The position numbers and the translations under genes were made by a program. A DNA stretch of 64,000 bases, taken from NCBI GenBank assembly GCA_041663005.1, contig JBAZRK010000001.1:222734-286733 (forward strand). The letters run 5' to 3'. The notes under the pieces were generated by a model, which saw only the letters and a program-made list of their open reading frames with translations, was not told the DNA's origin and searched no databases. Source of the stretch: Minisyncoccota bacterium (GTDB lineage Bacteria > Patescibacteriota > Minisyncoccia > Phycocordibacterales > UBA9973). Of the stretch, positions 45,281-60,973 are shown piece by piece (within the stretch, counting starts at the first letter, position 1; each line of letters starts with the position of its first letter).

Positions 45281-45862
45281 TTATACCAGATTAAAAATCC
45301 TTTTGCGATATATGCAATAAATTATTATCAGGTTAACTAAAATTAAATAGGCACTGAAAGAATATATAGTAAAAATCCAATATCTAATAACTAATAAACC
45401 TAAAATGTTGCTGGCAATACCTGCCACATAAGGACCGATAGATTCAGTTTCGGGAAACTTCCACGTCTTAAGAATTGTCGGAATAGCTGCCAAACCATCA
45501 CTTAGTATTGCAAACACAATAGCTATTGAAAGGTTATGGGTGAAGATATATAAAAGCAAAGCAAAGAGAGAAAGTAAGCCACAATATATATCAAAAATTC
45601 TTATCTCCCAATACTTATTCTTTCGAAATAATGAGAACACAACTACCAAAAAAGGCCCGAAACCCGCGAGAAAAATAGGTATAATAGAAAGCCCCGCACC
45701 TGCTTTCAGCTGGAAAAATACACCTATAAAAGGAGGGAGCATCCATAGCACCCAAGAAACTAGATTAGGTCTTGTTGTCCCAAGCAAAACTTCCTTAAGG
45801 TAGAAAAAATACCCCACAAGAGTAATTGCAATCGATATATAAGCAAATTGTTCGGCTATCAT
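45281..45862 (-). CDS. Polytopic membrane protein (hypothetical)
   Basis: 193 aa, about 6 TM segments. Confidence 0.5.
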   Translation of the reverse strand: MIAEQFAYISIAITLVGYFFYLKEVLLGTTRPNLVSWVLWMLPPFIGVFFQLKAGAGLSIIPIFLAGFGPFLVVVFSLFRKNKYWEIRIFDIYCGLLSLFALLLYIFTHNLSIAIVFAILSDGLAAIPTILKTWKFPETESIGPYVAGIASNILGLLVIRYWIFTIYSFSAYLILVNLIIIYCIYRKRIFNLV

Positions 45863-46977: not shown

Positions 46978-48492
46978 CTATATCATCGGCTCGGCTTCGT
47001 GCGAGTTCTTGGCTTGGTGATCCGACTCTACCTGGTCGTAGGCTTCGTCTTCGGCCGTGGCATTTTCCGTGCCGTGAGTGTGACTTTTTGCTTTTCTTTC
47101 AATAATTGCCTTCTCCTCGGCGCTACGGATTATAGTTGCTTCTTCTTGGGCTATGAGTCGCGCAGCGGCGTCCTTAGGAATTGAATACTTGCGACGTGAA
47201 GCGGCAATTATCTCTTCTTGATACGACGGATGCGTCGGTGGCAATACACGCAAGGTCTCCGCCGAGAATGGATCGTAGGACTCTCCGTCGATTGTCATTT
47301 TGATATAAAATTCGGTCACCGCCAAGTTAATCATATCTTTAACATCGAAAAGGGGCGCGAACTCCGGCTTCATTTTGACTGCGTCTTCACCACCGATACG
47401 GAAAGTAATGATGCTTCCGCAATTTCCGAGCACCGCTTGGTGCACGCGAGTAATAATTTGACCGACGTACTGGTGCGCTACGGTAAGATTTAATCCATAT
47501 TTGCGAGCCTCAGAGAGAATGTTCTCGAAGGTTTGAGTCACAACGTTCTGGAACTCGTCCACGTATAGGTAAAAGTCTGTGCGGGCGGATTCATCCATCG
47601 AAGCGCGCTCCATCCCCGCTTGTTTAATCTTTGTCAGGAAAATAGAACCCAAGAATGAAGAATTTTCTTCACCTAGGCGCCCCTTCGAAATGTTAATGAG
47701 AACAATTTTTTTCTCATTCATCAACTTCGAAATATCAATCTTATTTTCCTTTTGTCCGAAAATATTGCGGAGCAACGGGTCTGACAGGAATTGCCCCAGC
47801 TTGTTGACCAGAGGAATGATGGCGTCCGTATCGAACTTCTCAGACCAGTCGGCGAATTCAATAGCGAAGAATCTCTTCACCATATCATCCGTAATGTATT
47901 CCACGACTTTCTGCCGGTAATTCCTGTCTGTCAGCATCGAAATCATCCCGCGCATCGTGGCGTGCGGGTAGTCGAGCAAGGCAAGACAGGTAAAGCGGAA
48001 CACGTGCTCGAGCCTAGGCGTCCAGTTGGCGCCGAATTGTTTCTGGAACACCTCGATCAATCCTTGGGTTAAAATAAATTTGAAAGCGGGATCAACGTTC
48101 GCCAGAGGGTTGAAGGATGCCGGATAATCCTTGTCAGTCGGGTCTATGATGCAGACATCGTCGATGCGATTTTTCGGCACGAAGTCAAGAATATTTTTAA
48201 ATTCGTCGCCGTGCGGGTCGATGAAGCATAGCCCGTGTCCATAATTTATATCCTGTCGAACTAGAAGCTCCAAGAGCTTCGACTTCCCCACCCCGGATTT
48301 TCCAATGATGTAGAGGTGTCTGCGGCGGTCGACGCGCTTGATACCGAAAATAAACTTTTTCTCTTCGAGTGAAGCGACATAGTTCGTACGACCGATGAAA
48401 GAAACTTCCGAAGGGTCAACTTTGCCGAAAACAGGCAGCTCCGGAGGCGGAGGTCCGTATTTTATTATTTGAACTCGATTTGGCTTAGGCAT
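46978..48492 (-). CDS. FtsK/HerA/VirD4-superfamily P-loop ATPase (paralog 1, soluble)
   Basis: Walker A GKSGVGKS, Walker B FYLYVDEFQN, ARKYGLNLTVAHQY. Confidence 0.7.
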   Translation of the reverse strand: MPKPNRVQIIKYGPPPPELPVFGKVDPSEVSFIGRTNYVASLEEKKFIFGIKRVDRRRHLYIIGKSGVGKSKLLELLVRQDINYGHGLCFIDPHGDEFKNILDFVPKNRIDDVCIIDPTDKDYPASFNPLANVDPAFKFILTQGLIEVFQKQFGANWTPRLEHVFRFTCLALLDYPHATMRGMISMLTDRNYRQKVVEYITDDMVKRFFAIEFADWSEKFDTDAIIPLVNKLGQFLSDPLLRNIFGQKENKIDISKLMNEKKIVLINISKGRLGEENSSFLGSIFLTKIKQAGMERASMDESARTDFYLYVDEFQNVVTQTFENILSEARKYGLNLTVAHQYVGQIITRVHQAVLGNCGSIITFRIGGEDAVKMKPEFAPLFDVKDMINLAVTEFYIKMTIDGESYDPFSAETLRVLPPTHPSYQEEIIAASRRKYSIPKDAAARLIAQEEATIIRSAEEKAIIERKAKSHTHGTENATAEDEAYDQVESDHQAKNSHEAEPMI

Positions 48493-48607
48493 TGATAGGT
48501 TATTTTATGGCGTAGTGAATTTTGGCGATGTTTATTAAAACGCGCCTGTCGCTTCGCCAAAATCTACTACCCCATTTTACCACAAATCCTAATAAACTTC
48601 CGCCTGA

Positions 48608-48646
48608 CCCGCCTCGACTCGCGTTGCTTCGTCGACGCGAGGCGGG
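48608..48646. other. GC-rich 9-bp-stem hairpin (cccgcctcg ... cgaggcggg) between Cys-rich gene A1 and the ATPase. No clean T-tract follows.
   Basis: Read directly. The inner part contains a SalI-type gtcgac palindrome. Confidence 0.35.
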
Positions 48647-48653
48647 TAACATT

Positions 48654-50378
48654 TTAGTAAACCTCTTGTTGGTAACAACGTTCACAATACACAATTTCCG
48701 GCCGCTCAGGCGCATAAGAAGTCTCAAATTCGACTTCACACTTCCCTTCGTGGTTAGGATGTTTTTTATCGCACATACATTCTCTGCGCCAAAGTCGGGG
48801 CGGATTGACCAACTTAAATCTCTCCTGGTGCCTGCATTCGAAACAGCTTCGGGGTACAGGTAAATTAAATTTTTTCAGGAATAAAAATTCGTTCTGGATA
48901 ATTTTATAGGGCCTTTTGCAAGTTTCACACTCAATGACATAATTGACTATATCATCACTTGTGTCGTGTATGTCCGGCGGTAAATCTTTCGTGGTGTGAG
49001 TTATGCGCTGCTCTGGTTGTTCACGTTCAATATAGTTGTACCCATTGCTTAAAATATCCGCTTTGGTCTGCGGAAAATAATCTTGCGCGATGGTCTCATT
49101 GTAGCCAAAAGGAGAAATATCAATAGGAAAATATTCGCCATATTTATAAATTCTTCCTTTTTTGTCTATATAGGGCATATCCTGCATATGCTTTATTATT
49201 TCTTCCCTGAGTTTTTCAAAATCGTCCTTGGAATATTCTTTGTTAAAAATGCAATAATTTTTATTGCGTAATCCGACACAGCCAAAAATATTATTGCACC
49301 CGTGGCAATTCAGGGAGTATTCCGCGTTCAGACATTCCCATATCGTCAATCCGAAAAGTTGCCGTGAGCCGTTTATGCCAGAATCCATTGCCTCGTATAG
49401 TAATTCTGTGCTGACCCCAACTCCATAGCCGTCGTAACTTGTATAAAGCCCGTGGACCGCATTGGTAGTAAATTTGCAGTCCTTTAGGTCTTCTGAGTCG
49501 AAACAATGATAAGAGTTTTTTGAATGAAGAATATTATCTCCTGAAACATTTGAAGAATTAAGAATGTTGGCAAACTTTCTCAAGCTTTTTAATCGGAGAC
49601 TTTCGAATTTTTTCTTGGCTTCTTTGAAACTCTCAAAATTCCCTATATTTAATTCGCTTAATTTTTTGAAATACTCGTCTTTTGTCAACTGCTCATTCCA
49701 CATGCAGTAAGATTTATTCCTGAGGTTGGTACAACCAAAACAATTTATGCAGTTTTTACAATCATATAAAAAGTAAGAACTGGTGCATGCTTCGGCGTTT
49801 TGTGAAAAGAAAGTTTCGTAACATTTCAAACTAGAAACATCTCCATAGGAAAACTGGCAATCTCTAGTAATAAACATGTCCATGGAGTCTTTGCAATTAT
49901 TGCACCGCGAGCCGTAAGTAACATTTTCGCCGTCCCAAGACGCGGAGACTAGATAAGCGTTCCTGAATTCACCTATATAATTACCGTATGAAGTATTGAC
50001 GCATTTCCCGATAAAAAGATTTGGATGCGGTACTTGCTCCATCAGGTCCCGAAATTGACCAAAAAATGGCTTAGAAAAGTCATACTCCCTTCCATATTCC
50101 GTAGGGTCCCACTGATCGCCCCACCAAATATCTCGTTCGTACACAATAAACGGAGAGTCGGCTGAAAAGCAACTTATGAGATTTTTCCCTGTCTTTCCGC
50201 ATTTATTGCGATGTAGCGTTCTTTCATTTCGCCAAGCCATCCTTCTTTGCATTCTACACTCCGGGCAAAATGTCGGCGGTGGGACCTTTATTTTTTCGTA
50301 AAAATTGAAATCCTCCGACTCGATTGTAAATTTACCGTTACAATTCTGACATATTACATTTTGTGATTTATACTCCAT
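48654..50378 (-). CDS. Cysteine-rich two-ribbon protein, subtype A, copy 1 (574 aa)
   Basis: N- and C-terminal CxxC-x~24-CxxCR zf-trcl-like ribbons (EDFNFYEKIKVPPPTFCPEC). Internal YDCKNCINCFGC..LRNKSYC repeats. Confidence 0.8.
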   Translation of the reverse strand: MEYKSQNVICQNCNGKFTIESEDFNFYEKIKVPPPTFCPECRMQRRMAWRNERTLHRNKCGKTGKNLISCFSADSPFIVYERDIWWGDQWDPTEYGREYDFSKPFFGQFRDLMEQVPHPNLFIGKCVNTSYGNYIGEFRNAYLVSASWDGENVTYGSRCNNCKDSMDMFITRDCQFSYGDVSSLKCYETFFSQNAEACTSSYFLYDCKNCINCFGCTNLRNKSYCMWNEQLTKDEYFKKLSELNIGNFESFKEAKKKFESLRLKSLRKFANILNSSNVSGDNILHSKNSYHCFDSEDLKDCKFTTNAVHGLYTSYDGYGVGVSTELLYEAMDSGINGSRQLFGLTIWECLNAEYSLNCHGCNNIFGCVGLRNKNYCIFNKEYSKDDFEKLREEIIKHMQDMPYIDKKGRIYKYGEYFPIDISPFGYNETIAQDYFPQTKADILSNGYNYIEREQPEQRITHTTKDLPPDIHDTSDDIVNYVIECETCKRPYKIIQNEFLFLKKFNLPVPRSCFECRHQERFKLVNPPRLWRRECMCDKKHPNHEGKCEVEFETSYAPERPEIVYCERCYQQEVY

Positions 50379-50385
50379 ATACTTT

Positions 50386-50658
50386 TTATTCTATAATTCT
50401 AACGAATTGTAGAATACTTTTCCCGCGCTTACTAAGCGTGTGCCGTACTATACTCCCTTCACTTCTCTTTTTTACTAGACCAGCGATGTACATTTTGTTT
50501 ATATGCGCAGAAATATTTTTAAAGTCCGAGTTTACGTCACTAGAAATTTCCTGAACTGATAAATTGGGTTTCTTGCCCAGTAGCTCAAGTATTTTCAACC
50601 TGTTGTGGTTCGCCACTCCCTTTAAAATCCTTTCTAGCTCTCGTTTTGACTTTTTCAT
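50386..50658 (-). CDS. ArsR/SmtB-family winged-helix transcriptional regulator
   Basis: VANHNRLKILELL recognition-helix region. 90 aa. Confidence 0.8.
   Translation of the reverse strand: MKKSKRELERILKGVANHNRLKILELLGKKPNLSVQEISSDVNSDFKNISAHINKMYIAGLVKKRSEGSIVRHTLSKRGKSILQFVRIIE
50389..50414. promoter_or_regulatory. Operator-like imperfect inverted repeat TTCTATAATTC-taac-GAATTGTAGAA, immediately upstream of the Cys-rich A1 start
   Basis: Near-duplicate of the arsR promoter palindrome. Overlaps the last codons of arsR. Confidence 0.4.
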
Positions 50659-52420: not shown

Positions 52421-54550
52421 TTATTCTAAGATTTTTCGGAGCACGTCTTCAGGAACTTCGGGCGCAGGCTTCGGCACAGGAGGAACTGGCACCTGGGAGC
52501 TCGCGCTAGGGACAGGAGCTTGCGGAGGCGCCACAGGAGGTGCTGGAGGTTTCGGTGGTGCCGGCGGCGGAACAATAGTTTTCTGAGATATAAGATTTTT
52601 AAGTTTATTCATTTCGTCAGGAGTTGCAGCGCGATCTTTGGAAGACCTCGGGTCCTGATTTACATCTCGCATTTTATTTTTCAAAACATCGAGGGAAATA
52701 GGAGCGGGCGTGGGTTTGGGTGCAGGCTGTGGTGTAGGAGAAACAGGCTTGGCCTGAGAGGCATCTTTGGTCATAACCTTAGAGAGCACGTCTTTGAGCG
52801 CTTGGTTGTCTCCGCTTCGCGGCTGTGGCCTTGGAGCCTGCGGTACATTGTTTCTTTCCTGCTTGATAGGCGGTTTTGGCGTAAAAACTTTCTTGACGTC
52901 ACTGACGACTCCGGGTTTGGCAACTGGGGCGTATGGCTTGTCTACACGTTCGGGGTGCCTGTCGTGAGTTTCTATTTTGCTTTCATCTGGCTTAAACTCT
53001 ATGCCTATGTCCGCCAGAGGTTGGAAAAATTCTGACTCATCGTGAATCGGTTCATCCTTTTGACCTTTCTCCACCTTAACCTCCCCAGACTTAATTTTTG
53101 CGATGCATTCCTTACAGTAAGCAGGGCGGCCAGGTTCTGGTTTAAATGGTACAGTGCGTTCTTGTTTACATAGTGAGCAGATTATTGGGAATTTTTCTCC
53201 GGTTGGTGACGGAGCGCTGTTTGGGACACTGTCGCCCAAGGACATCCCGCTCCAGTCGTTGATCTCACGCTCCACGATTTCCCTTGAACGACAGTAAAGT
53301 TCCCTAGAGGATTTGATAACTTCCTCTTCAATGTTTTTGTCCCCTCCCTTTACCATTGGCGGTAAGGTTTTCGCGGAAAAAGGTCGTGAGGTTATGCCGT
53401 CTATCATAAGCTTCATATAGACCTTGTAGTTCGGCAGGTTCACAATGTCCTGGGGAGTAAACTCAGGCTCGAATTCTTTTTCCAAAAATTCTGCATCGTC
53501 GGCACCAACCCTGAAAACAATCATAGTCCCTACGTTGCCGAACACCGCATCGCGGACAGCGGTACTCTTGTCGGAGATAAGCTGCGCGGTGTACTGGTGC
53601 GCCACCGTGAGGTTCAATCGGTATTTGCGGGCTTCGGAGAGAATCCCCGCGAAAGCGTCCGTCACGAAGTTTTGAAATTCGTCGACATATAGATAGAAGT
53701 CTCGTCGGCTTTCTTCCGGTATACGCACACGCTCCATCGCCGCAAGCTGAATCTTGGTAATTATCATACCTCCGAGCAGAGCGGAGTTGTCTTCCCCGAT
53801 TCTTCCTTTGGAAACGTTGACGAGGAAAATTTTCCCCTCGTTCATCATATCGAAAATATTTATTGTACTTTTCGATTGCCCCACGACGTTTCGAATTATC
53901 GAAGTTGAGAGAAACTGCCCGACTTTGTTCTGAATTGGGGCAATGGCTTCATTTCTGAATTTGTCTTGCCAAGCTTCGTATTCGTGAACCCAGAAAGCTT
54001 TAATCACCGGGTCTTTCAAATTTGAAATTATTTTCTGTCGATAGTCCTTGTCGACGAGCATTCTTGGAATTCCCAAAAGTGTCGTCCCCGGGGTGTCGAG
54101 CAAGGCGAGAATTGTATTGTTTAAAATGTATTCCATTCGGGCGCTCCAAGCATTGGCCCAAATTTTCGTAAAGATTCCCATAAGCCCGGACGCCACGAGG
54201 TGCTTGTACTGCGGGTCTACTAATTCCAAAACATTGAACCCTATGTGGTAGTCGGCATCAGCCGGATTGAAATAGATTACATCCTTCAAGCGATGGCGCG
54301 GGATAGCTCCGAGCACTGTCTCCACGTTTTCTCCGTGAGGGTCGACAAGGCAGACGCCTTCTCCGTTCTGGATGTTCTGGATAATCATATTGAACAATAG
54401 TACCGATTTACCGGTACCTGACTTCCCGAGAAGGTAAACGTGCTGACGCCTATCTTTGCGCTTAATACCAAAAAGCTGGTTTCTATCTCGGTAAGTGGTT
54501 AGCCCGATGTAGGTAACGTCTTTGTTTATAGGTATTTCCGCAATCTCCAT
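52421..54550 (-). CDS. FtsK/HerA/VirD4-superfamily P-loop ATPase (paralog 2) with a C-terminal zinc ribbon and Pro-rich tail. The start is re-set to the internal Met.
   Basis: Walker A GKSGTGKS, Walker B FYLYVDEFQN. CSLCK...RPAYCKEC ribbon. PAPPKPPAPP low-complexity tail. The track start at 54667 would read through the dnaK terminator. Confidence 0.7.
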   Translation of the reverse strand: MEIAEIPINKDVTYIGLTTYRDRNQLFGIKRKDRRQHVYLLGKSGTGKSVLLFNMIIQNIQNGEGVCLVDPHGENVETVLGAIPRHRLKDVIYFNPADADYHIGFNVLELVDPQYKHLVASGLMGIFTKIWANAWSARMEYILNNTILALLDTPGTTLLGIPRMLVDKDYRQKIISNLKDPVIKAFWVHEYEAWQDKFRNEAIAPIQNKVGQFLSTSIIRNVVGQSKSTINIFDMMNEGKIFLVNVSKGRIGEDNSALLGGMIITKIQLAAMERVRIPEESRRDFYLYVDEFQNFVTDAFAGILSEARKYRLNLTVAHQYTAQLISDKSTAVRDAVFGNVGTMIVFRVGADDAEFLEKEFEPEFTPQDIVNLPNYKVYMKLMIDGITSRPFSAKTLPPMVKGGDKNIEEEVIKSSRELYCRSREIVEREINDWSGMSLGDSVPNSAPSPTGEKFPIICSLCKQERTVPFKPEPGRPAYCKECIAKIKSGEVKVEKGQKDEPIHDESEFFQPLADIGIEFKPDESKIETHDRHPERVDKPYAPVAKPGVVSDVKKVFTPKPPIKQERNNVPQAPRPQPRSGDNQALKDVLSKVMTKDASQAKPVSPTPQPAPKPTPAPISLDVLKNKMRDVNQDPRSSKDRAATPDEMNKLKNLISQKTIVPPPAPPKPPAPPVAPPQAPVPSASSQVPVPPVPKPAPEVPEDVLRKILE

Positions 54551-54581
54551 TCCATTAATAATACCAGAAATACCACAAACT

Positions 54582-54606
54582 AAAAAGCCCCTTGCGGGGC
54601 TTTTTG
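54582..54606 (-). terminator. Intrinsic terminator immediately downstream of dnaK
   Basis: aaaaa gcccc ttgc ggggc ttttt, 3 nt after the dnaK stop codon. Confidence 0.7.
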
Positions 54607-54608
54607 AA

Positions 54609-56522
54609 TTACTTAGCTTCGTTCTGAGGAGGTTCCTCGCCTTCTTTCTTTTCCTTGAATTCCGCATCTTTGACTTCAGCGGGTTGTTCTTCGGGGGCTC
54701 CGGTTGGCGGAGTTTGAGCGCCAGCCTTGTTCATTGCCTCACCGATTTTGGACATTTCGGCAGACAATTCTTCGGTGGCCTTTTTGATAGCTTCGCCGTC
54801 TGTTCCATCTTTTACCCCACGAAGCGCAGTAATTTTCGCCTCCACTTCAGTTTTCAATTCTGCGGAAATTTTGTCTCCGGCGTCTTTCACCGCTTTTTCT
54901 GCTGTATAGATAATCATCTCGGCGGTGTTTTTCACTTCAGCATTTTCTTTCTTTTTCTTGTCTTCCTCGGCGTGCACTTCAGCGTCCGCTTGCATCTTTT
55001 TGATATCTTCTTCTTTGAGCCCGGAGCTTGCTTCAATTTTTATTGATTGAGTTTTACCTGAAGCCTTATCTTTCGCAGTAACATTCAATATTCCGTTGGC
55101 ATCCACATCGAATGACACCTCAATCTGCGGCATACCTCGAGGAGCTGGCGGAACACCGTCCAGGATAAATCGCCCGAGAGATTTGTTATCGCTTGCCATT
55201 GGGCGCTCTCCCTGCACAATGTGAATTTCTACAGAAGTCTGATTGTCGGCAGCTGTAGAGAAGGTCTGGGATTTACTGGACGGGATGGTGGTGTTTCTTT
55301 CCACTAATTTCGTAGCCACGCCTCCGAGAGTCTCAATTCCCAGAGAAAGCGGAATAACGTCGAGGAGGAGAACATCGCGTACATCTCCTTGCAAAACTCC
55401 GGCTTGCACCGCAGCACCAAGAGCGACGACTTCGTCAGGGTTAATGGTTAGGTTAGGAGCTTTGCCAAATACTTTTTTCACTTCTTCTACAATCTTCGGC
55501 ATCCTGGTCTGACCTCCGACCATCACTATTTCATTCATATCTTCCATCTTGAATCCAGAGGCAGCCATAGCTCGCTTGGTAATTTCGATAGAGCGAGTAA
55601 CGTATTCATCTGCTAGGGATTCTAACTGCGCCCGAGTCATCTTGAGCAATAAGTGCTGAGGACCTTCTGCTGTAGAAGTGATAAATGGAATGTTGATTTC
55701 GGATTCTATTGCAGTAGAGAGCTCAATTTTTGCTTTTTCTGCTGCTTCGTCTAAGCGTTGCAATGCGAGCTTGTCTCCGCGCACGTCCACTCCGGAAGTT
55801 TTCTTAAATTCTTCGGCAATCCAGTTAATTATCTTGTGGTCAATATCTCGTCCGCCCATATGGCTGTCTCCGTCTGTAGACTTAACTTCGATGACATCAT
55901 CTCCGATTTCGAGCACAGACACGTCGAATGTTCCGCCTCCGAAGTCGTAGACCACTATTTTCTCATTTTTCTTTTTATTAAATCCGTAAGCGAGGGCCGC
56001 CGCTGTAGGCTCGTTGATAATTCTTTTTACATCGAGTCCGGCAATTGCACCTGCGTCTTTCGTTGCCTTTCTTTGGGCATCGTTAAAGTATGCGGGAACA
56101 GTGATGACAGCTTCAGTAATTTTCTCGCCGAGTTTTGTTTCGACGTCAGTTTTAATTTTAGAAAGAATCATCGCCGACACTTCTTCCGGTCGCATCCACT
56201 TATCACCGATTTTTACTTCCACTCCGCCGTTGGCAGATTTTTGAATTTTGAAAGATGCATTCTTTAAATCTTTCTGCACTTCAGGATCTTCAAAATTGTG
56301 ACCCATAAAGCGCTTGATGCCGTACACTGTATTTTCCGGATTGGTCACCGCCTGCCTTTTCGCAAGTAAGCCTACAAGCCTGTCTCCATTTTTAGCAACG
56401 GCTACTACCGAAGGAGTCGTGCGGTTCCCTTCTACGTTTTCAATAATTTTCGGCACACCGCCCTCTATGACGGCTACCGCAGAATTTGTCGTACCCAAGT
56501 CTATTCCTATGATTTTTGACAT
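54609..56522 (-). CDS. dnaK: Chaperone DnaK (Hsp70)
   Basis: [32 protein letters not shown]. Confidence 0.95.
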
Positions 56523-56580
56523 AATTTTATTTTGTTAAAACTTATAATTAATTTTTTAATAGTATATACCATCCAAATTA

Positions 56581-56620
56581 AATTAGCAAGCTCTTCGCGG
56601 TCGCGAAATGGTTGCTAATT
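56581..56620. promoter_or_regulatory. Nested inverted repeat AATTAGCAA-gctc-TTCGCG-gt-CGCGAA-atgg-TTGCTAATT. The arms supply the -35 TTGCTA of both divergent promoters (dnaK and the PaaX-like gene).
   Basis: Read directly. 17-nt spacers lead to TATACT (dnaK side, minus strand) and TATAAT (plus side). The outer arms resemble CIRCE half-sites (TTAGCA/TGCTAA) but the spacing is non-canonical. Confidence 0.5.
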
Positions 56621-56646
56621 CTTAATATATATTATATAATACAGGT

Positions 56647-57168
56647 ATGTCAAGGAAAAAGGACTACTCGGGCAAAATAATCAAAATTTTAGGCAAAAAA
56701 CCGGCTACTTCTGTCGAAGAAATTTGGACTGGTTTCCCTGACCAGAATCGATATTCTGTAACTAGATCATTAAAGGGCCTTCGTGAGGCAGGTCTCATTG
56801 AGGCTCTTTCCTCCGCTCATTGTGAATATGCACGCCTCACAAAAGAAGGAAAAAAGAAAATGCATAGTCTAATTCTCGAGAGTAATACTGGCCTGGTGAA
56901 CACTTCCTGGGACGGATTTTGGAGGATAATTTTGCTCGACCTTCCAGAAGAAAGAAAAAGCGAGCGCGAAAGTCTGCGCTACCTACTAAAAAAAGCTGGC
57001 TTCGTCTGCCTAAAGAATTCTGCCTGGATCTCCCCTTTCCCATACGAGCATCTCTTCACAAATATTAAAAAAGATTTAGGCCTGACGACAGAAATGATGA
57101 TTATGGTCACCGACAAAATCGACGAAGAATCTAAAAAGGTTTTATTTCAAACCTTCGGGCAAAGTTAA
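56647..57168 (+). CDS. PaaX-like transcriptional regulator (wHTH plus PaaX_C-like domain)
   Basis: C-terminal WDGFW...LPEER...LRYLL.KAGF..L.NSAWISPFP matches the PaaX C-domain pattern (recalled from memory). Confidence 0.55.
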   Translation: MSRKKDYSGKIIKILGKKPATSVEEIWTGFPDQNRYSVTRSLKGLREAGLIEALSSAHCEYARLTKEGKKKMHSLILESNTGLVNTSWDGFWRIILLDLPEERKSERESLRYLLKKAGFVCLKNSAWISPFPYEHLFTNIKKDLGLTTEMMIMVTDKIDEESKKVLFQTFGQS

Positions 57169-60688: not shown

Positions 60689-60973
60689 TTATAAAGAGTT
60701 ATCCACATCGCTGTTTTTATTGTGAAAAAACCGGAATGGCATATTATCCACCAGAATGGGGTTATCAGAAAATAGCCTGCGAAGAGCTGAAACTCCTTTT
60801 CTAAATTTACCAAATACGGAAAAAGCAAAATGCTGCTTAACGCGACATCCAAAGCATTGCTCCGGGATTTTCAATCCTACTTTTTCATACAAAAGTAAAT
60901 CGCCAGAATCTATTATAAATTCTTCTTTACAATCAGCGCAAATTTTACTCTCCGTTTTTGAATTCATAGACAT
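60689..60973 (-). CDS. Stand-alone single zf-trcl-like zinc-ribbon protein (~90 aa). A miniature relative of the Cys-rich family.
   Basis: CADCKEEFIIDSGDLLLYEKVGLKIPEQCFGCR. Its start region overlaps the grpE 3' end. Confidence 0.5.
   Translation of the reverse strand: MSMNSKTESKICADCKEEFIIDSGDLLLYEKVGLKIPEQCFGCRVKQHFAFSVFGKFRKGVSALRRLFSDNPILVDNMPFRFFHNKNSDVDNSL

Follow-up and report, generated by a model that had tools for sequence, protein, structure and literature searches.

A cysteine-rich repeat protein family of Paceibacteria-type Patescibacteria and its genetic linkage to orphan VirD4-like ATPases

Introduction

The zinc-finger domain zf_Tbcl (PF13451, formerly named zf-trcl) is a "probable treble clef domain" that forms small stand-alone proteins, for which we know of no function. 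Small proteins of Methanosarcina mazei with the pattern CxxC-x17-CxxC bind zinc, as determined by inductively coupled plasma mass spectrometry (PMC12704099). VirD4-like type IV coupling proteins (T4CPs) are numerous in Patescibacteria: a survey counted 5,713 VirD4-like genes in 2,918 genomes, 148 of them near virB4, and its authors noted possible exaptation (PMC12102498). The type IV secretion systems (T4SSs) of these bacteria lack conjugation components, and another use has been proposed for them (PMC12102498). Here we analysed a stretch of 64,000 nucleotides (the window) from a Minisyncoccota bacterium (GCA_041663005.1, contig JBAZRK010000001.1, positions 222,734 to 286,733), which encodes four cysteine-rich paralogs (A, B, C and D) next to two VirD4-like ATPases, here called T4CP-L and T4CP-S.

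The sequence-only reading of the window described the paralogs as proteins with zf-trcl-like ribbons at both termini and internal CxxCxxCxxC modules, predicted to bind many zinc or iron ions per chain. We describe the architecture of the family, its genomic linkage and the evolution of its cysteines, and discuss whether its members may act as partners of the two ATPases.

Results

Protein architecture

Paralogs A–D shared 41–48% identity and could be aligned end to end, which bears out the four Cys-rich paralogs of the sequence-only reading; their 33, 31, 30 and 32 cysteines (5.3–5.7% of residues) were slightly fewer than the approximately 34 (6%) given there. A tblastn search with all four as queries found no further full copies in the window and also picked up a 94-aa open reading frame (ORF), described below.

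Each protein has a Z-S-S-Z architecture, with a double zinc-finger module at each end (Z) and two Cys/Ser-rich repeat domains in between (S1 and S2; Table 1). Finger 1 of a terminal module consists of CxxC, approximately 24 residues and CxxCR, followed by an Arg-rich helix; finger 2 is of the CxxC-x17-CxxC type. The N-terminal ~86 and the C-terminal ~95 residues were duplicates of one module, as seen in tblastn searches between paralogs (E 7e-8 to 1.7e-10) and in profile–profile comparison with hhalign (99.8% probability, E 1e-27). S1 and S2 (residues 125–243 and 274–394) matched each other at 99.9% and E 7e-35, and by these statistics the repeats are far beyond chance. Each central half closes with the element C.NC.NCFGC..LRNKSYCIFN.QY.KEEY and a helix. 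The N-terminal CQNC...CPxCR ribbon, its second copy at the C-terminus (CxxC...CxxCR), the third CxxC at the end (YCExCYQxEVY) and the two internal modules had all been recognised before, and the profile comparisons now back both duplications. In paralog A, a CxC..H..H insertion sits inside the C-terminal finger, and the protein ends in the conserved ...CYQxEVY.

No hydrophobic or transmembrane segment was detected in the family proteins and the ribbon starts from residue 10 on, therefore we consider them soluble and cytoplasmic. As a whole they are mildly acidic (median isoelectric point (pI) 6.2). The termini were more conserved, with a column entropy of 1.55–1.62 bits versus 2.14–2.18 bits for the repeat surfaces. 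The invariant residues other than cysteine were aromatic residues, proline and a few charged residues, with no catalytic motif among them.

The repeats have a strict period. Residues 127–225 can be divided into eleven nonapeptides, in which positions 3, 6 and 9 are taken by Cys, Ser or another small residue (consensus xx[CS]xx[CL]Yx[C/x], period 9), and all 22 Cys-bearing columns between residues 126 and 225 were spaced by multiples of three. This periodicity, taken from sequence, is independent support for a solenoid. An AlphaFold2 model of paralog A had a predicted local distance difference test (pLDDT) score of 82.8 and a predicted template modelling score of 0.85, and was very confident at the termini and in residues 380–520. 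Two points speak against a solenoid: both repeat regions were modelled at pLDDT 58–80 and almost without regular secondary structure, and AlphaFold2 is reported to over-predict beta-solenoids for repeats (PMC11795689). Because of this over-prediction, we rate the repeat domains, with moderate confidence, as probably beta-solenoid-like. Described beta-solenoids for comparison are curli-like CsgA repeats, left-handed beta-helix acyltransferases, gamma-carbonic anhydrases, RTX beta-rolls and bactofilin. Membership in the hexapeptide left-handed beta-helix acyltransferases or gamma-carbonic anhydrases was rejected on both hidden Markov model (HMM) matching and fold. The GGxGxDxUx nonapeptides of RTX beta-rolls have the same period of 9, but their consensus differs and HemolysinCabind had no match in the window proteins or in 81 family members, so RTX membership was rejected as well.

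The core of the family matched no Pfam, NCBIfam or PADLOC model (scans of the five window proteins and of 81 members), and a profile search found no relative of the core in the Protein Data Bank (PDB), where the sole match was a LIM domain at E 0.07. None of these searches placed the proteins in a known enzyme family, the outcome that had been named beforehand as speaking against a distinct family. LIM membership was rejected at Pfam scores of 14.6–16.8 bits (threshold 22.9) and PDB matches to CRP/LIM at E 0.07–3.7. The five family proteins had no match among the PADLOC models of anti-phage defence.

The proposed likeness to zf-trcl found weak support, in position and in four-Cys pattern but not in score. 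PF13451 gave 18.7 bits for B, 14.7 for D and 19.3 for the 94-aa ORF against a gathering threshold of 24, with no match in A and C, and reached E ≤ 0.01 in 11 of the 81 members (best 3.6e-4). The matches sat exactly on the first ribbon of the N-module, and both terminal ribbons carry the two CxxC pairs that make up the one conserved site of PF13451. Both types have pairs approximately 24 residues apart, an aromatic-rich stretch between them and basic residues after the second. In contrast to the stand-alone zf_Tbcl proteins, the family ribbon makes up one quarter of a protein of 570 aa and never occurs without a fused second finger. A Foldseek search of the modelled termini against the viral structures of BFVD retrieved small proteins of phages annotated as "putative zinc-ribbon domain", with a best E value of 4e-3.

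The second finger resembles zf_Tbcl_2 (PF23477, TIGR04272) in spacing and in the motif ..P..RP.VYC..C. The spacing is seen as CIKC-x17-CEKC at the C-terminus of B and CDLC-x17-CNSC at the N-terminus of D, and C547-x17-C565 holds in all four paralogs. It differs in that the C-terminal finger of most members carries an insertion and 75% of the N-terminal copies are degenerate. Scores stayed below threshold, at 15.3–18.4 bits for PF23477 (threshold 27) and 14.7–15.4 for TIGR04272 (B, C and D; threshold 36). The finger of T4CP-L is a bona fide member of the same type (PF23477, 39 bits; TIGR04272, 41.2 bits). Aligned with 23 such T4CP-L fingers in hhalign, the C-terminal finger of the family matched at 96.1% (E 3e-9) and the N-terminal one at 96.5% (E 7e-10).

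Genomic context

Among 84 loci retrieved with family proteins as seeds, tandem arrays reached 9 copies in 17 kb (L067) and 7 copies (L005), and in one assembly two or more loci jointly held at least 6 copies. A T4CP gene was within 10 kb in 33 of the 84 loci; with approximately two T4CP genes per genome of ~0.8 Mb, we estimate that a random 20-kb segment would hold one only a few percent of the time. The unit that recurred was T4CP-L, 1–7 family genes and T4CP-S on one strand. It was found inside the dnaK..dnaJ block, and also without DnaK or DnaJ genes nearby and in the reverse order T4CP-S, family, T4CP-L (L005, L019, L033, L036, L040, L058, L065). In a second sample, seeded with T4CP-S, 46 of 59 evaluable loci had a family gene immediately upstream of T4CP-S. 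Between the two ATPase genes there was no copy in 11 loci, one in 14, two in 11 and three in 5.

Relative conservation was expressed as the median identity to the window proteins in 50 syntenic loci. T4CP-L (89%) and T4CP-S (84%) were as conserved as DnaK/Hsp70 (84%). The values were 75% for DnaJ, 67% for the PaaX-like protein, 64% for CysS and 40–46% for the best family match, and the family thus turns over or diverges much faster than the ATPases.

The conserved ends and variable body of the proteins, their unstable copy number, their recurrent place between conserved ATPases and the finger in common with T4CP-L led us to favour tentatively, at somewhat less than even confidence, a role as non-enzymatic binding proteins that are interchangeable partners of the T4CP-L/T4CP-S pair. 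The proteins would be built from zinc-stabilised, conserved end modules and a variable repeat body, and would act together with the ATPases either as adaptors or as clients. More doubtful is the wider idea that family and ATPase pair constitute an unrecognised, Paceibacteria-specific machine, in which a conserved motor would be combined with fast-changing, zinc-finger-capped solenoid clients or adaptors.

Several observations weigh against such a partnership. The tie between family and ATPases is one of gene neighbourhood throughout, and neighbourhood is not interaction. The sample seeded with the family is skewed in favour of family genes and contains several loci of common ancestry, while the T4CP-S-seeded sample comprises 80 metagenome loci from close relatives only (79–91% identity). 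In the latter, the family gene was absent in 9 of 59 loci, and dnaJ followed T4CP-S in 56 of 57 loci, a tighter tie in this lineage than that of T4CP-S to the family. Many arrays (L043, L047, L067, L080) had no T4CP gene within 10 kb. In the window, a strong terminator-like hairpin on the minus strand (54582-54605; 10-bp stem and T-run) lies immediately past the dnaK stop, promoter-like sites precede dnaK and dnaJ, and the 161-nt spacer between A and T4CP-S holds two strong hairpins (48507-48575 and 48607-48647, with arms of 22 and 15 nt). Because of these elements co-transcription is unproven; the calls come from consensus scans, and site counts do not exceed those of shuffled sequence.

Some of the same evidence would suit housekeeping proteins that bind RNA or DNA, or cytoplasmic scaffolds, with the ATPase adjacency arising from insertion hot-spots and inherited synteny in compact genomes. 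Nucleic-acid binding would fit the basic first finger of the C-module (pI 9.3) and the Arg-rich helix that follows each ribbon. Many arrays lie among unrelated housekeeping genes, e.g., ribonucleotide reductase, pilus and TIM/PGK genes in L001, and family genes occupy several slots of the grpE-dnaK-dnaJ region and are sometimes absent from it. We regard this explanation as unlikely, given that the ATPase-family-ATPase sandwich recurs in both orders and with different flanks, that T4CP-L carries the same type of finger and that the protein as a whole is mildly acidic.

The proteins could also be the cargo of the ATPases, which would recognise the terminal modules and feed the paralogs into a T4SS or another channel, towards a host cell, much like VirD4 with the Bep effectors of Bartonella or EssC with its type VII substrates. 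Variable arrays of diverged paralogs beside conserved secretion-type ATPases would be expected of effectors, as would the divergence of the family relative to its neighbours (40–46% versus 84–90% identity) and termini that are conserved right up to the C-terminal end, on either side of a variable middle. The other use proposed for Patescibacteria T4SSs is also in line with it. However, canonical coupling proteins have an N-terminal membrane anchor, which is missing from both ATPases, and T4CP genes are almost never near virB4. The architecture is rigid, with no toxin or enzyme domains swapped in, and Cys-rich proteins that have several zinc ions but no signal peptide are typically cytoplasmic. 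Translocation to a host therefore seems rather improbable, and we retain the partner role as the working interpretation.

Conservation of cysteines

Cysteine conservation was analysed in 265 full-length homologs, made up of the four window paralogs, the listed matches of the homology search and the 150 best representatives at 50% identity. The family members have 21–49 cysteines per chain. In the first finger of the N-module, C10, C13, C38 and C41 were each 95–99% conserved and the full set was found in 250 of 265 sequences. The second N-terminal finger had all four cysteines in 66 sequences, one in 170 and three in none; C63, C81 and C84 co-occurred in the same 66 sequences each (phi 0.99–1.0). 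The intact CxxC-x17-CxxC is thus found in paralog D and 25% of the family, and the other 75% have lost three of the four cysteines. At the C-terminus, C484, C487, C512 and C515 were complete in 225 sequences and reduced to one in 26, and the last finger was complete in 259. The first CxxC of this last finger is split in most members (~68%) by the CxC..HxH insertion, which may add a further metal site.

Such all-or-none behaviour is how tetrahedral metal sites evolve. Since the terminal sets are kept or lost whole, we infer that their cysteines are structural zinc ligands, amounting to approximately 3–5 predicted zinc ions per chain depending on the paralog.

The central cysteines behaved differently. 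Of C198, C207, C210, C213 and C216, five were present in 182 sequences, four in 46, three in 27 and two in 9; they were lost one at a time, to Ser, Leu, Val or Met, and most members have Leu or Ile at the position in the second module that corresponds to C213. The remaining central cysteines interchange freely with Ser, Thr, Val or Ala and are weakly correlated with each other. Because of this stepwise, single loss, most central cysteines look like buried small residues of the repeat core, and not like ligands of a zinc or Fe-S cluster. A point against this is that C198, C207, C210, C213 and C216 were each 85–96% conserved, and one central metal site involving C198–C216 may exist.

An opposing reading would turn the centre into a metal ladder, in which rows of zinc or iron ions or Fe-S clusters serve as metal stores, redox buffers or electron-transfer proteins. 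The number of cysteines per chain, the conservation of the five residues just named and the ArsR/SmtB-like gene that accompanies the family would all suit it. It is made very unlikely by the single losses to Leu, Val, Met and Ser, in contrast to the all-or-none terminal sites, and by the Leu/Ile in module 2. The ArsR-like protein has no cysteine or recognisable metal site. There was no ferredoxin or Fe-S match in Pfam (Fer4: none at E ≤ 1 in the window proteins and none at E ≤ 0.01 in 81 members), and the family motif CxxCxxCxxC has no proline, in contrast to the 4Fe-4S motif CxxCxxCxxxCP of ferredoxins. A ferredoxin-like Fe-S reading of CxxCxxCxxC was rejected on the single cysteine losses. 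Accordingly, the expectation that cysteines are conserved across homologs held for the terminal sets, but not for the central cysteines, which erode singly. Single losses of this kind do not support a reading of the internal modules as metal clusters, and the many zinc or iron ions per chain shrink to the predicted terminal sites.

Taxonomic distribution

A word-indexed homology search returned more than 7,105 significant proteins (clusters at 90% identity), among them a sequence identical to paralog A from a 333-kb contig. The matches listed had no Pfam domain, and their functional names were all "hypothetical" except for one "YbaR (Trm112 family)" from JGI; the named organisms among them were Nomura-, Staskawicz-, Lipton-, Pace- and Minisyncoccia bacteria, all of the candidate phyla radiation (CPR). 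When 1.84 billion representatives were searched exhaustively with an HMM, 4,922 clusters (50% identity) matched, 2,236 of them with E ≤ 1e-30. In the best 150 of the 4,922 clusters, protein length was 523–612 aa. A scan of one genome per species of the Genome Taxonomy Database (GTDB) found at least 587 relatives, and the best 80 of these loci were from Paceibacteria-type metagenome-assembled genomes, two oddly labelled bins excepted. No relatives were found in IMG/VR. The family appears to be restricted to Paceibacteria-type Patescibacteria.

The two odd bins, L045 (268 kb, labelled Burkholderiales) and L053 (1.8 kb, labelled Bacteroidales), carry family genes. They look like mis-binned CPR contigs and not like horizontal transfer, in the case of L045 because its gene order is that of typical Paceibacteria.

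Gene order in the window

The features of the window are given in Table 1. On the minus strand the order is grpE, the 94-aa ORF, D and C, followed by a PaaX-like gene on the plus strand and then, again on the minus strand, dnaK, T4CP-L, B, the ArsR-like gene, A, T4CP-S and dnaJ.

Table 1. Positions of the family genes, the parts of paralog A and adjacent genes in the window
Feature	Position	Strand	Basis or remark
Paralog A, 574 aa	48654..50378	minus	ORF; Z-S-S-Z architecture
Paralog B, 562 aa	50705..52393	minus	ORF; C-terminal finger is canonical CxxC-x17-CxxC
Paralog C, 561 aa	57203..58888	minus	ORF
Paralog D, 565 aa	58922..60619	minus	ORF; both terminal double-finger modules complete
A, residues 6-52: N-terminal zf_Tbcl-like ribbon (C10, C13, C38, C41), then Arg-rich helix	50223..50363	minus	Cys conservation; sub-threshold PF13451 in B and D
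A, residues 53-95: degenerate second finger, C60 the sole Cys kept	50094..50222	minus	Cys co-occurrence; hhalign to zf_Tbcl_2 finger, 96.5%
A, residues 121-266: repeat module S1, 11 nonapeptide units, CxxCxxCxxC-LRNKSYC cap, helix	49581..50018	minus	
A, residues 267-401: repeat module S2, duplicate of S1, and helix	49176..49580	minus	hhalign
A, residues 402-478: conserved acidic connector, motif YGEFFP..SPF.YNET.AQDYFP	48945..49175	minus	pLDDT 91-97; median net charge -6
A, residues 479-524: basic C-terminal zf_Tbcl-like ribbon (C484, C487, C512, C515)	48807..48944	minus	Cys set; median pI 9.3; homology to N-module
A, residues 525-574: C-terminal CxxC-x17-CxxC-type finger (C534/C547...C565/C568)	48657..48806	minus	Cys set; hhalign to T4CP-L finger
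T4CP-S, 504 aa, soluble VirD4/TraD-like ATPase	46978..48492	minus	Pfam DUF87, TraG-D_C, TrwB_AAD_bind; NCBIfam TraD/VirD4-like; directly downstream of A
T4CP-L, soluble VirD4-like ATPase with Pro-rich tail and finger (residues 492-524)	52421..54667	minus	TrwB_AAD_bind; directly upstream of B
ArsR/SmtB-like winged-helix gene, 90 aa, no Cys	50386..50658	minus	Between B and A
94-aa ORF, truncated N-module of a fifth paralog subfamily, one ribbon	60689..60973	minus	Overlaps grpE 3' end

No transmembrane segments were detected in T4CP-L or T4CP-S, and both ATPases matched the PADLOC models mad8 and HerA weakly. With its listed start (54667) the T4CP-L ORF runs into the end of dnaK, and translation probably begins at M40 instead, at ~54550. 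The ArsR-like gene was found in 8 other loci, where it always adjoined a same-strand family gene in one of four different positions: between copies, after copies, after dnaJ and one copy, or after T4CP-L. It seems to travel with the family genes.

The PaaX-like gene (56647-57168, plus strand) has a Cas2-like middle domain and is divergent from dnaK, a position that is conserved in relatives. Among the promoter-like sites for dnaK, the best (56653-56624) lies in the spacer at 56523-56646, as do short AT palindromes (56623-56641). No hrcA-like gene was found beside grpE-dnaK, the rest of the window not having been searched for one, and the PaaX-like gene may be a local heat-shock regulator. In two metagenome loci of close relatives (L110, L157), the rpoA-grpE-PaaX-dnaK-T4CP-L-T4CP-S-dnaJ block was complete, yet the nearest 10 kb contained no family gene; from these blocks we conclude that family genes have been gained and lost at several slots of an otherwise frozen block. 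Just after dnaJ, a 193-aa ORF (45281-45862, minus strand) without Pfam or NCBIfam match is kept in position in many relatives (median identity 57%).

As minus-strand RNA, the spacer between A and T4CP-S folds at -61.8 kcal/mol (z = -5.15 versus shuffles), and its hairpins may serve in termination, attenuation or processing; Rfam has no RNA family in the window. A single operon from dnaK to dnaJ was rejected on the hairpin after dnaK and the promoter-like site before dnaJ.

In the window, as in many relatives, the genes share a strand with grpE, dnaK and dnaJ and lie between them, which would suit a function in Hsp70-linked proteostasis, as zinc-finger holdases or co-chaperones similar to the DnaJ zinc-finger domain or Hsp33 that are co-expressed with grpE, dnaK and dnaJ. 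This association is gone in other lineages, in which the T4CP link persists. In addition, a separate promoter and terminator seem to serve dnaK, and Pfam scans showed no resemblance to either Hsp33 or the CxxCxGxG domain of DnaJ. A chaperone function is, in our view, highly improbable.

The 94-aa ORF had been considered a 90-aa ancestral unit of the family. Its ten homolog clusters are all short (82–158 aa), and in both contigs examined (L087, L088) the homolog is directly after grpE. The longer of these short homologs extend into the family linker WW.D.WDP...RPFF.QL..LQEK.P and the first repeat units. Full-length members with the same diagnostic N-terminus (FGKFRKG.S.LSG.SLITVLP) occur in L019, L036 and L051 (551–554 aa), and over a stretch of 59 residues the one from L051 shares 51% identity with the window ORF. 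Because intact full-length members share this N-terminus, the ORF is the 5' remnant of a fifth full-length subfamily, a truncated paralog and not an ancestor.

Discussion

We found no description of the family in the literature. As far as our tools show, there is no earlier account of the Z-S-S-Z family, of its central domain and scale, or of its coupling to orphan VirD4-like ATPases, while its building blocks, treble-clef-type zinc fingers and a solenoid-like repeat, are of known kinds. Paceibacteria genomes are approximately 0.8 Mb in size, and with up to 9 copies of a 1.7-kb gene in such genomes the family must matter to the lifestyle of these bacteria.

The cysteine pattern corrects the tempting assumption that all cysteines of such a protein are ligands of metals. 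All-or-none versus gradual loss separates true sites from core residues.

The link to the ATPases offers a testable handle on the role of the approximately 5,700 coupling-protein homologs of Patescibacteria, nearly all of which are away from virB4. If the machine proposed above is real, it would explain why these genomes have approximately two orphan coupling-protein genes each, away from type IV secretion loci.

The described systems that come closest in layout are the VirD4-Bep loci of Bartonella and the EssC-type loci of type VII secretion, in which a conserved FtsK/VirD4-type ATPase likewise stands beside diverged paralogs that vary in number and have conserved terminal modules in common. 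In the family described here, by contrast, the ATPases are soluble and unlinked to virB4, the paralogs have no toxin or enzyme domains, and the system is known from its genes alone.

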